A stretch of 64,000 nucleotides of DNA, from assembly GCA_951406725.2 (NCBI GenBank), contig OX597833.1, forward strand, positions 39,494,001 through 39,558,000, written 5' to 3'. Positions 20,098 to 63,410 of this stretch are shown piece by piece. This DNA is from Octopus vulgaris. Its lineage: Eukaryota. Under the pieces are notes generated by a model. The model saw nothing but the letters and a program-made list of their open reading frames with translations. It ran no database searches and was not told where the DNA came from. The first letter of the stretch is position 1. Every line of letters begins with the position of its first letter. The position numbers were made by a program, and so were the translations under genes.

Positions 20098-20637
20098 GAA
20101 TAAAATACAGAAAAGTGTAGTGAGTAATTCTGATCTTTAGCAATATGGTGATAACTCTCAACATATTTCAGCCCAATCAGACCTCATCAGCAATGCTTAG
20201 TGTAAACCTATTGCTGGATCTCAGAATGATTTGAGAGACTAAAGAACTTTCATGTATGAACACCAAGTGGTATGATAATGATGAGAAATAAGTGGGGGAA
20301 ATACATGCAGGGACTGTGTAAATCAATCACAGATAGACAGACAGACTAAGAACATTGAAGTGGAAGAATAAAATACAGAAAAGTGAAGTGAGTAATTCTG
20401 ATCTTTAGCAATATGGTGATAACTCTCAACATATTTCAGCCCAATCAAACCTCATCAGCAATGCATAGTGTAAACCTATTGCTGGATCTCGGAATGATTT
20501 GAGAGATTAAAGAACTTTCACGTATGAACACCAAGTGGTATGATAATGATGGGAAATAACTGGGGGAAATACATGCAGGGACAGTGTAAATCAATCACAG
20601 ATAGACAAACAGACAGACTAAGAACATTGAAGTGGAA
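20098..20637. repeat. Tandem duplication, 268 + 272 bp, near-identical
   Basis: gaataaaatacagaaaagtg...aacattgaagtggaa at 20098-20365 and 20366-20637. Confidence 0.95.
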
Positions 20638-21042
20638 GACAGGGAAAGTTTATTTGCTAATTGTGTTGTAGGGTGGGATTTCCTATCCAAATATCAAACT
20701 GTCTTTCCTGTTCTATGCAATAATTATTCAAGTGAATAATAGTGTTAAGTGCAGGGGTAGTAGCATAAGTGGTGTTTCTGTTGTTGTTGTTGTCACTGGT
20801 GTTGGTGGTGTTAATGTTGATGTTGGTGTTGGTGATATTGGTGGTGTTGGTAGTGTTGGTGGTGGCCATGTCATCAAGCTAACTCTAACTTTATTATATT
20901 TCATTACCTTCCAACTACCTCATATATATTTACTGACAGGATTGAAAATAAATATTTAATCATTAACAACATGAGATATAATTATATTACAAACACACTC
21001 ACATCCACACATACATAGCATGCATGTGAGATATATTTCTAT

Positions 21043-31751: not shown

Positions 31752-32005
31752 TTCCCACTAGTTTCATGCATTTTCTTTTATTCTTCCCACTAGTTTCATG
31801 CATTTTCTGTTATACTTCCCACTAGTTTCGTGCGTTTTCTGTTATTCTTCCCACTAGTTTCATGCATTTTCTGTTATTCTTCCCACTAGTTCCATACATT
31901 TTCTGTTATTCTTCCCACTAGTTTCATGCATTTTCTGTTATTCTTCCCACTAGTTCCATGCATCTTCTGTTATTCTTCCCGCTAGTTTCATGCTTTTTAC
32001 TGTTC
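31752..32005. repeat. 32-bp minisatellite (cccactagtttcatgcattttctgttattctt), about 7.5 copies
   Basis: Directly visible, no spacers. Confidence 0.95.
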
Positions 32006-33837
32006 TCTGTTCCCACTGGTTTCATAAACTTATACATCTGTCATTCACTACTTAGTCTCATGTTTATACTGCCATTTGTAACCACAAACTGCTTTCATTT
32101 AATCTTTTATCTGTTCCCACTGGTCTCTGTCTTTTGCTACAACTGATTTTATGTTTTTATCATTTTACCTCTTAACACTTCTCTTGTGTGTTTATACATC
32201 TATCATCTGTTTTCACTATGCAAACATCAGTCCCCTCTGGTTCCATCAAAAAGGTCAATGGAGCTGAGCTTCTGCCAATGACTAATGTTCAGTTTGAAAT
32301 TTATACCAAGAACTAAATAGTTGTGGGGGTTTTTTTTTGTATAGTGTGCCCCCAAATTAACAACCTTTTCCAACTACCATTTTTCTGAATGTCCTGATGA
32401 AGGGTTCTTCACCACAAAATATAGAAATACAAGTTAAAACTGCAACTTTGTTCTGTTTTCTTTTCCTCTTGTAATTTACTTTTTATCTTCTCACATTGTT
32501 TCAGATTTAGACAACTACATTCTTTAAAACATAATTTATGTTTGAAGTAGTAAAAAAAAAAAGCTGTCCATTTAGTTTCCAATTTAGCCTTGCTGCTGAA
32601 TCAGAGAAGTTTGTTGCAAAGTTAACATCCTTATAACCTTCATAATTCTTAGTGAAATAGTTATGAATAAATTACTCAGTAAATGTACAAGATTGTAGAA
32701 TGGTTGTAGCAGAAAATTTAAGTTGTTTAGATATTAATTAATTCAGAGACACTATCCAGAAAATAAAAAGGAAATGCAATATTTAAATTAGTGTTAACAT
32801 GTTTAATGCAAGGAGTAATAAAAAAGAAAGGTTAACTGGAAATATATGGTGAGAGGGAAAGAGAAAATATAAACTATATTAGTGACTAAACATGGCTGCA
32901 ACAGCTAGAAAAGATGCGAAAAGTGATATTAGTCTTTGACTAATATTTTGTTTTTATTACTGTTTAGCTTTTTTATTACTCTGGGAATTAAATATGTTGA
33001 CACTAATTCAACATTATTATTTGAGTGCTTCATGAACTTAAAACGTTTGAGAATCAGTATAATTATGAAGAGGTTTTGGAAAGGAAATCATTGGGCAATC
33101 TATGCATTGTACAAATGTTTTACTTGAGAGAGGTAGATAGATAGATAGAGGGGGAGAGAGAGAGAGAGAGAGAGAGTATAGGTGAGAGACAGAGGAGAGG
33201 AACAGGTATCAAATGAAAGTGTGATTGTGTTCAATACGAAAATTGTCTGAAATAGCCAGTGGCATTAATGCTAAGAGAGAAATAAACAGGAGACCCCATC
33301 TCGAAGAGAATTTTGACAACAGTAAAAGAGTTTCTCTTGTGAAAAGCAAAAATTCTCATTGCAATCAGGTGAATGAAAAAGACTTAACATCAAGCATTGA
33401 CAACATTTTTCAAGAAGTAGTCCACATGAGACATGGCTCATTTTCAGGCAGGTCACACTAATAAAAAAAAAAAAGGAATTCAAGGTAATTTTTCGTTAGG
33501 TGTGCCATTCAGAATATCCCACGGGCTGCTGGTTGCTCATGATTCCTCTACATAATCGTTGGACATGATAGAAACAGTAGACATATCTTACTTCAAGTTT
33601 CCCACTACCCTGTTTGAAAAATACGGGAGGACATGTTAGGTGATGTTTCCCTTGGCACTGTTCTAGTAAAAACCTTTGTTCATAGGTGGTGATGGAGGGT
33701 CACCTTTGATAATAGACTGGACTGTATTTCATCATAGGCTGGAATATCTTTAACCATAGGGTGGATCATTTTTGACCCTAGTCTTTGATTATATGCTAGA
33801 TCATCTTTAACTATGGTCTGGGTCAATTTTAACTATT

Positions 33838-35929: not shown

Positions 35930-36545
35930 CACACACACACACATGCATGTGTATGTGAATATGTGTGTCCACATATGTACATAAATGTATATCTGCAATC
36001 ATGTGTGTATATGTGTGTGTGTGTGTATGTATGTGTGCGTGTGTGTGCATGTATGCGCATGCACACACACACATGCATGTGTATGTGAATATGTGTGTCC
36101 ACGTATGTACATAAATGTATATCTGCATGCATGTGTGTATATATGTGTGTGTGTGTATGTATGTGTGCGTGTGAGTGTATGTATGCGCATGCACACACAC
36201 ACATGCATGTGTATGTGAATATGCGTGTCCACGTATGTACATAAATGTATATATGCATGCATGTGTGTATATGTGTGTGTGTGTGTATGTATGTGTGCGT
36301 GTGTGTGTATGTATATGCATGCACACACACACATGCATGTGTATGTGAATATGTGTGTCCATGTATGTACATAAATGTATATCTGCATGCATGTGTGTAT
36401 GTGTGTGTGTGTATGTATGTGTGCGTGTGTGTGTATGTATGCGCATGCACACACACACATGCATGTGTATGTGAATATGTGTGTCCACGTATGTACATAA
36501 ATGTATATATGCATGCATGTGTGCATATATGTGTGTGTGTATGTA
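35930..36545. repeat. Higher-order 130-bp tandem repeat built from TG/CA/TATG microsatellites, 5 units
   Basis: Marker gtgaatatg at 35955, 36085, 36215, 36345 and 36471. Confidence 0.93.
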
Positions 36546-36762
36546 TGTGTCTGTGTGTGTATTTGTGTGCAGTGTGCTCATAATATGTATGTGTGTGTGC
36601 GTGTGTGCACACATGTATGTAGGTATTTGTATATATCTATGCACACATGTATGTGTATGCATATTTGTGTGTATGTATGTGTGTGTCTTGCATTATACAT
36701 ATTGTTTGCTTTTTTTCTTTTCCAATTTTCATTTACTTTTTTGTAGTAGTAGTAGTAGTAGT

Positions 36763-61960: not shown

Positions 61961-62195
61961 GTGGAAGAGGGCTGGTGATCTTGATGTGTGCATGCTTGTG
62001 TGTTGTGATGTGATGTATTGTGTGGTATTGTGGTGTAAGGTGTAGTGGTGTGTGGTGTGGTGTGATGGTATTGGGAGGTGGGGGAGGCGAGAGTGGGGAA
62101 AGTAAGGGTGGGGTATATATATATATGTTATTTACATTATTTACATTTGACAGATATTTGTCCTCATCTTGTATGTTGTTAACACAACATTTCGG

Positions 62196-62500
62196 TGTTG
62201 GACGATTTGACTGAAGTCTAGTGAACCAGATGGCTGCACCAGACTCCAATCTGATCTGGCAGAGTTTCTACAACTGGATGCCCTTCCTAACGCCAACCAC
62301 TCCGAGAGTGTAGTGGGTGCTTTTACGTGCCACTGGCACGAGGGCCAGTCAGGCAGTACTGGCAATGGCCACGCTCAAATGGTGTTTTTTTTATGTGCCA
62401 CCTGCACGGAGACCAGCTTGTTGCTCTGGCAATGATCTCACTTGTATGGTACACTTAGCGCTCCACTAGCATGGATGCCAGTCATCGAATTTGATTTCGA
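62196..62500 (-). mobile_element. SINE family D
   Basis: Similar to 43450-43795. Confidence 0.8.
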
Positions 62501-62597: not shown

Positions 62598-62649
62598 GAT
62601 GATGATGATGATGATTATATATATATATATATTGTATATATATAATGTA

Positions 62650-62682
<33 letters not shown>

Positions 62683-62688
<6 letters not shown>

Positions 62689-63282
62689 CAATATTAAGGA
62701 ATGGCCCTGATAGGCCATTCGACCCACTAGAAAGAGCAGTCAAACTCAAACCGCTAAATAGTTGTAATTCTGAAATCAAAGGAGAAATAAAGAACCTTTA
62801 CCCTTATCATCTTTGGACTATGCATAGTTTCGATACTTTGATAAACCCATTAAATTAAATTTAATTTAATTTGTTTACATCTGGCCTGTCTCGTCAGCAA
62901 AGAAGCCAAGGAAAATATTCATCCACGAGGCGACACCAGTGACGCCTCGAGTCTATATACTCTAAATTTTCAAAATCCACCGTCACCGCGCTATTTTCTC
63001 AGCAGCAACTATAAACTGCTGATATAATTTCAAAATTATCCAAAAAGTCATCAATTAATCAATATAAGGGTAGCAAAAAATTCAAGAAAAATTATTCGCC
63101 ACCAGCGGTCTAGTGAAAAAGAGAAATAGTCACAGACTATATATATATAAATTCAACAATATTAAGGAATGGCCCTTATAGGCCATTCGACCCACTAGAA
63201 AGAGCAGTCAAACTCAAACCGCTAAATAGTTGTAATTCTGAAATCAAAGGAGAAATAAAAAAACATTTACCCTTATCATCTT

Positions 63283-63284
<2 letters not shown>
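62683..63284 (-). mobile_element. Hammerhead-containing partial-tandem retroelement (candidate non-LTR retrozyme or non-autonomous Penelope derivative)
   Basis: 133/134-bp direct repeats at 62683-62815 and 63151-63284 (period 468). (TA)n flanks, no ORF, internal hammerhead. The boundary at 63284 coincides with the cleavage-site position. Confidence 0.85.
62810..62903 (-). ncRNA. Type I hammerhead ribozyme with intact catalytic core
   Basis: UCUUUG-CUGACGA-G..(long stem II)..C-GAAA-CUAUGCAUAG-UC^-CAAAGA. 6-bp stem I, canonical CUGANGA/GAAA core, G10.1-C11.1 pair, GUC cleavage triplet, palindromic stem III. Confidence 0.88.
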
Positions 63285-63321
<37 letters not shown>

Positions 63322-63324
<3 letters not shown>

Positions 63325-63410
63325 GAATCAAAACAGTTTGATTCAAGCTCCTTAGTATGCTTGAAACTCATGAGTACCAATGAATTTAAATCAAACTGTT
63401 TTGATCCATA
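63322..63410. repeat. Short foldback with a hammerhead stem III remnant (gaaa-ctcatgag-ta)
   Basis: Arms tatgaatcaaaacagtttgatt / aatcaaactgttttgatccata. Remnant at 63363-63376. Confidence 0.7.

Follow-up and report, generated by a model that had tools for sequence, protein, structure and literature searches.

One-of-each 3' ends in two-armed insertions of predicted hammerhead retrozymes from Octopus vulgaris

Two related families of short repeated units in the genome of Octopus vulgaris, referred to here as X and Y, are inserted as either one or two arms, and the 3' ends of the two arms fall almost strictly on two different sites of the unit, A and B, one of each. This one-of-each A+B rule is the firmest result of the analysis; the circularity of the template is less firm. 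Family X has a member in the window, the whole stretch of 64,000 nucleotides that was analysed. On balance this element is probably a copy of a Penelope-mobilised non-LTR retrozyme, the RNA of which would have cut itself, been circularised and been rewritten into a (TA)n tract by two reverse transcriptases (RTs) working on one monomer circle.

The window copy and its predicted hammerhead

The insert of 602 bp is a copy of 1.3 units with (TA)n on both sides, and the coordinates given for it in the preliminary description are exact. A monomer of 469 nt runs on the minus strand from 63284 to 62816 and is followed by its own first 133 nt again (62815 to 62683); this partial second unit is 97% identical to the monomer start, with a 1-nt deletion. 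The features are as follows.

62816..63284, minus strand: full monomer of family X, 469 nt, numbered 1-469 from the predicted cut
62683..62815, minus strand: partial second unit (monomer 1-134), which forms the insertion's 3' end and stops at initiation site A
62802..62911, minus strand: predicted type I hammerhead spanning the unit junction
62897-62891, minus strand: CUGACGA of the hammerhead
62831-62828, minus strand: GAAA of the hammerhead
62827-62818, minus strand: stem III of the hammerhead, palindromic
62834, minus strand: private mismatch in the long stem II of the hammerhead
between 62816 and 62815, minus strand: predicted cut
63025..63246, minus strand: predicted structured domain, closed by a helix of monomer 39-52 with 247-260, which holds sites A and B
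63138..63154, minus strand: site A of the complete unit, at monomer about 131-147, with (TA)6 inside it at 63138-63149
63050..63058, minus strand: site B (monomer 227-235), the family's other preferred 3' end, unused by the window copy
62616..62682, no strand: (TA)n target tract on the 3' side of the element
63285..63324, no strand: (TA)n target tract on the 5' side of the element

Several further points of the preliminary description hold. At the internal junction the sequence is GUC^CAAAGAUG, the outer boundary starts at the post-cleavage C, and (TA)6 lies inside the monomer at the positions listed above. The monomer is ORF-less (no ATG ORF of at least 30 aa) and has kept its CpGs, with an observed/expected ratio of about 1.0 vs 0.27 for the window. 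Its fold beats 100 of 100 shuffles (z -4.5), and the family X unit has 34% GC. Because the target is (TA)n, the TSD of this copy is unreadable. The copy contains one hammerhead; two consecutive complete ones, the 'active' criterion of Li 2026, are absent from it and present in longer X copies such as L014 and in Y arrays. The window copy is an ordinary, slightly decayed family member.

Other repeats lie in the window as well. An imperfect inverted repeat with matching ends, MITE-like, adjoins the element at 63325-63405, and an interspersed repeat that is SINE-like by look (62177-62480) occurs also in L197 (about 840-1100). A short stretch at 31413-31463 matches, at 80%, the 3' terminus of the 781-aa Penelope-like family described below. 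Tandem repeats are found at 283-462 (period 27), 20098-20639 (period 268), 31752-32025 (period 32) and 35932-36562 (period 130).

At the unit junction stem I, which is bulged, is followed by CUGACGA, a long arm of stem II, GAAA, stem III (a palindrome) and GUC, and from these elements a type I hammerhead is predicted, backed by covariation. The hammerhead of the window copy had been described as intact; this is so for the core, but pair 3 of stem II is a C-A mismatch private to this copy, where 122 of 133 distinct hammerheads have C-G. As an Rfam search of the window copy scored below its thresholds for a hammerhead, the call rests on motif, stems and covariation. Among 36 natural hammerheads, chosen for diversity out of the 133 distinct ones, pairing is kept in 98.6% of 432 cells (36 hammerheads by 12 pairs; the copies are related, so that cells are not independent events) and 7 of the 12 pairs show double-sided changes. 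Stem II pairs covary across all 133. The minimum-energy fold contains stem I and not the full core, the forcing of which costs about 5 kcal/mol. Stem III gives good self-pairing as a dimer (-15.9) and none as a hairpin, so dimeric cleavage is the likelier mode predicted.

Variants of the motif were seen elsewhere. In an X subfamily (L024, L038, L041, L051, L126, L132 and L154) the core is CCGAUGA (U4 to C) and the stem II arm is longer, with compensatory stems kept, and type I hammerhead-like motifs of other families lie near the GIY-YIG loci L202, L206, L233 and L237.

Insertion ends in families X and Y

The monomer was searched for in the whole assembly (2.8 Gb, 227 contigs) and belongs to a multicopy dispersed family, as opposed to a single-copy element, with 319 exact intact junctions. 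The search returned 2,211 candidates, and the 40 that were scored are 82-100% identical. From 194 loci a set of 161 distinct X insertions was obtained by removing 25 duplicates, 4 segmental-duplication loci and 4 wide regions. The X and Y samples are non-random: most insertions were chosen for their similarity or for an exact motif match on the first contigs, and the automatic parsing of ends misread a few Y arms. At L191 and L193 (C1, about 212.56-212.58 Mb) four X copies have been multiplied with their flank in a satellite-like segmental duplication.

Single-armed insertions make up 74 of the 161; the other 87 are two-armed, with the arms head to head and the 3' ends facing outward. The 3' ends cluster at site A (monomer 127-147) and at site B (218-243), where the preliminary description had one end only. 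Single arms end at A in 46 cases, at B in 20 and elsewhere in 8. Two-armed insertions comprise 67 A+B, 1 A+A, no B+B, 15 B+other, 2 A+other and 2 other. Independent site choice would make A+B at most half of the pairs, and against this null the ratio of 67:1 for A+B over same-site pairs has a binomial p vs 0.5 of 2e-19. An end outside the A and B windows is present in 19 two-armed copies of X and 5 of Y, and L029 and L112 come near B+B. Stems formed by A+A or B+B would be as long as those of A+B, and selective loss of palindromes is therefore an unlikely cause of the rule.

(TA)4 or longer lies within 25 nt of 192 of 248 X 3' ends vs 424 of 6,279 background 25-mers (6.8%). TSDs of about 12-21 nt were read at five non-TA sites (L047, L074, L103, L114 and L178); the remaining 11 of 16 TSD candidates sit in simple repeats or in the element, and (TA)n sites are unreadable. 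The arms of X extend up to ~1.7 units, and the lengths of paired arms are uncorrelated overall (Spearman 0.04, n 58).

Family Y was found through a diverged neighbour in L084. Its unit of 490 nt is 67% identical to that of X and is present genome-wide with 1,779 exact junctions and 2,782 internal-motif matches; its best copies are 98-100% alike, and the family is young and has likely been active recently. Relative to X, the hammerhead of Y carries compensatory changes in all three stems, with GUC or GUA as the cut triplet. The circular folds of the two units share an architecture (z -4.1 for X and -5.4 for Y, 25 shuffles), in which a long helix is modelled to close a domain with both A and B, again with compensatory changes between the families. 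Two-armed structures account for 43 of 68 Y insertions: 38 are A+B, none is a same-site pair and 5 are other (binomial p vs 0.5, 4e-12). An alternative parse of a few Y arms gives 37 A+B and no same-site pair, and two further Y insertions are A+B. The arms of Y reach 5,517 nt, or ~11 tandem units, and pass up to 10 intact hammerheads. Junction length is exact in 107 of 107 matched junctions, and 24 of 43 inversion joints have an overlap of 0-3 nt. Each Y unit has a 66-aa ATG frame (read at L276, 3741-3941) that runs through the hammerhead and is not kept in X.

Y arrays of up to ~11 units occur within single two-armed insertions, for example L275, L276 and L348. An adjoining array in L270 (1-1205) belongs to an older subfamily of Y, at about 92% identity, in which stem III is a complete palindrome and the cut triplet is GUA. 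Insertions of X, Y and the Penelope-like element occur inside or next to one another's (TA)n tracts (L084, L270, L363 and L366).

Two proposals of the preliminary description fail at the level of the family. Priming had been attributed to the UA tract inside the unit. Site A of Y has no such tract, and Y still ends at the homologous site (126-136, mostly 131; B ends at 229-236) with an AT match of about 2 nt; UA-tract priming was rejected on these ends. The other proposal was a 5' end exactly at the cut, which was likewise rejected as a family trait. Only 3 of 96 unbiased X passes, taken through a motif at monomer 52-75 from 100 listed matches, end at position 0-1, and in Y there are 3 ends at positions 1-3 abutting (TA)n genome-wide vs 1,779 junctions. 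The post-cut 21-mer without the preceding C occurs at four places in the genome; the window and a second exact end are two of them, and the others are an internal jump and a point change (the 319 intact junctions were counted with a different pattern).

What stands of the claimed relation between X ends and the GUC site is a loose pile-up in the 20 nt 3' of the cut, the exact boundary being rare. The stop rate of X is 0.020 per nt in positions 1-20 vs 0.0056 past the junction (p 2e-6), which suggests that some X templates were probably cut at the hammerhead site, or that the RT stalls at stem I. Since 44 of the 96 passes stop within positions 1-51, many X templates may have been linear. In Y there is no pile-up at the cut, with 1 of 111 arms ending at position 1 in a sample biased to junction-crossers.

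Template, mechanism and candidate helper

The variants within insertions bear on the number of templates. Of the variants in 30 Y insertions, 71 are fixed, being carried by every unit that spans them. Thirteen of the 71 are each private to a single insertion (8 insertions in all), and 9 of the 13 span both arms (5 insertions); a further 92 variants in the 30 insertions are singletons. Private variants fixed in all units argue for a bottleneck of one unit, which a monomer circle would provide. Another 18 variants, in 6 of the 30 insertions, are carried by only some units, and in L275 (2451-7348) variants recur every four units, a pattern that could represent a higher-order repeat, a multimeric template or an assembly artefact. 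These partial variants, above all those of L275, call for later duplication, multimeric templates or assembly error, and judged from sequence a pure monomer circle would leave all 18 unexplained. Opposite X arms have rare variants in common in 12 of 61 pairs vs 2 of 89 near-neighbour controls, for which gene conversion between the arms may be a source. The two arms of an insertion also tend to stop at or cross the junction together (two-by-two counts 16, 4 and 7, 13; p 0.0095).

In the preferred reading, a tandem copy would be transcribed, its RNA cut to unit lengths by the hammerhead and ligated to a circle, in line with PMC7229834. A dimeric Penelope enzyme would cut both strands of a (TA)n target with a stagger of roughly 12-21 nt, and on one and the same RNA, A would be the start for one target strand and B for the other. 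These start sites would be positioned by the folded domain and not by pairing to a UA tract. Synthesis by both RTs would then continue round the circle by strand displacement, and microhomology of 0-3 nt would join their cDNAs; a single-armed copy would have kept only one cDNA. The window copy would accordingly be an A-primed single arm of 1.3 laps, with one full lap past the junction, and its stop at the cut site may reflect a re-cleaved template or chance.

A Penelope-like protein has been found to cut and extend both strands in vitro, with two internal starts that lack target homology, and is predicted to be a dimer (PMC11167929). In the same study the start site showed no difference between strands in vitro, which counts against the preferred reading. 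We give an even chance to the broader view that Penelope-class retrotransposition is an obligate two-start process: one enzyme dimer would act on one RNA, the strands being forced to different fixed sites, so that tail and inversion would be a single event; the RTs would roll up to ten laps on a circle; and the genome would hold a still-active retrozyme together with an intact candidate helper.

It is possible, if rather unlikely, that the same retrozyme and Penelope helper used a linear template, either a multimeric transcript that reads through a genomic array or a monomer copied with exact template jumps again and again. Cleavage would then matter little, and the arms would derive from successive units of one transcript. 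Hammerhead mutants left insertion unaffected in vitro (PMC11167929), which agrees with this, as do the partial and periodic variants in 6 of 30 Y arrays, the accumulation of X ends just 3' of the cut, and the A+B pattern of the 5-kb autonomous element (the 781-aa family described below), known without a demonstrated circle. However, private variants that are fixed in every unit and in both arms require a bottleneck of one unit, compensatory change has preserved the hammerhead between families 67% alike, and the passage of arms through up to 10 intact hammerheads with junction lengths exact throughout also weighs against a linear template. For head-to-head Penelope insertions the published model is one of fold-back or self-priming, on an antisense template (PMC3846280). 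The inverted arm might have arisen in this way, with the A/B difference produced by later endonuclease trimming. The 5' ends lie at most 40 nt apart in 22 of 58 simple X pairs, as fold-back would have it. Fold-back from a B-primed cDNA, though, requires that the A arm be contained in the B arm; in 30 of 56 X pairs it is the A arm that extends further 5', on which simple fold-back was rejected. Fold-back from an A-primed cDNA predicts A+A, and arm lengths differ more than 100-fold (5,517 vs 41 nt in L275), so that this origin is improbable.

All Penelope insertion signatures are present in X and Y, including partial tandems, a head-to-head inverted copy and a tail on one end. They would also be expected if the copies were 5'-truncated pLTR ends of an autonomous Penelope; the period-4 array of L275, for its part, resembles DNA-level duplication, as in a satellite grown by unequal crossover. 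Upstream of the X hammerhead, however, every long copy has the same unit again and not ORF sequence. No conserved extension is shared by the X flanks, in which the search gave only other host repeats in mixed orientation and one C1 segmental duplication. X is therefore taken to be an independent unit and not a truncated pLTR, and all sampled copies are independent of Penelope ORFs, a point raised in the preliminary description as a check for copies contiguous with RT/GIY-YIG ORFs. Arrays that end at A and B inside single (TA)n sites, and variants common to the inverted arm, speak against a satellite. Either origin is highly improbable and, for the sampled copies, already contradicted.

For the helper postulated in the preferred reading, a GIY-YIG search gave 6,136 candidates, of which 150 were scored. 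In a young Penelope-like family (L225-L240, L354-L403), which sits in (TA)n and has pLTRs and a tail of 40 nt, the 781-aa RT+GIY-YIG frames are intact and a frame of 479 aa lies upstream. The family has 521 exact motif matches and a CxxxxCxxC linker, which we take to be Neptune-like, in line with PMC8557442. All 7 readable two-armed copies of the 781-aa element are A+B, and its pLTR has, by eye, a hammerhead-like motif with an apparently non-canonical core. X and Y have no DNA similarity to this family or to the elements at 50 GIY-YIG loci, the one hit being a separate insertion, and other PLE families are present in the genome. Given a common insertion signature but no DNA similarity, and the presence of those other families, the 781-aa element is a candidate helper only. 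A faint architectural likeness, with both start sites inside a long closing helix in the element and in the retrozymes, is a lead only. Contigs of three runs guessed to be RNA, and of one unlabelled run, contain family fragments, some across the junction, although contigs cannot show expression, ends or circles. A loose-end motif from these contigs, sought in the genome as a lead to an autonomous partner, gave no match.

Relation to known systems

The class of metazoan non-LTR retrozymes is already defined, with circles and PLE helpers proposed (Cervera and de la Pena 2020, PMC7229834), and vertebrate retrozymes have been tied to pLTRs (Li, Clavereau, Pollet 2026, bioRxiv 10.64898/2026.07.22.740005). 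The units of X and Y, like those of the metazoan elements, are AT-rich and ORF-less, measure a few hundred nt and carry a type I hammerhead at their junction. The copies likewise range from monomers to multimers, with TSDs of more than 4 bp where visible (here about 12-21 nt). The two families differ in a long stem II arm (55-95 nt) and a unit slightly above the 150-450 bp range of PMC7229834. The text of these two papers names no cephalopod and leaves insertion ends, inverted arms and two starts undescribed; that of an octopus repeat annotation (PMC13282606) has no occurrence of hammerhead, ribozyme or retrozyme. Neither a cephalopod retrozyme nor a counted one-of-each rule was found in the literature searched, though supplements, subscription papers, and Repbase or Dfam may hold either.

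LINE-1 twin priming offers a more distant parallel. Both target strands prime on one RNA, and the result is a head-to-head inversion joined by microhomology; the two cDNAs are non-overlapping and the second site is variable. In X and Y, by contrast, neither site varies, and the sequence covered by one arm is covered by the other as well, often several times over.

The closest likeness is to Penelope-like elements (Arkhipova 2013, PMC3846280; Craig 2021, PMC8557442; Frangieh 2024, PMC11167929), which similarly have head-to-head arms, a tail at one end, two internal RT starts downstream of the hammerhead cut, AT-rich or microsatellite targets and TSDs of about 10-20 nt. A tail on one inverted pLTR has been described, for which self-priming or endonuclease resolution was proposed (PMC3846280, PMC8557442), and two internal start sites have been equated with the tail (PMC11167929). 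X and Y differ in lacking an RT + GIY-YIG ORF, in a tail of about 85-105 nt vs 30-40, and in arms of many laps. The retrozyme class and the two-site 'tail' are thus already known, and X and Y are new members. The texts of PMC11167929, PMC7229834 and the bioRxiv report leave open how inverted tailed Penelope insertions arise and whether circles and Penelope enzymes are the real templates and helpers of retrozymes. That mechanism is constrained by the genomic counts, in which a two-armed insertion has an A end and a B end and each insertion a single haplotype, and a near-identical young retrozyme beside an intact young RT-endonuclease in one genome is a system for a direct test. The interest lies in this testable active system and in the family-level rule: the published Penelope tail is optional or often on one end, whereas the two-armed copies of X and Y are almost strictly one-of-each.
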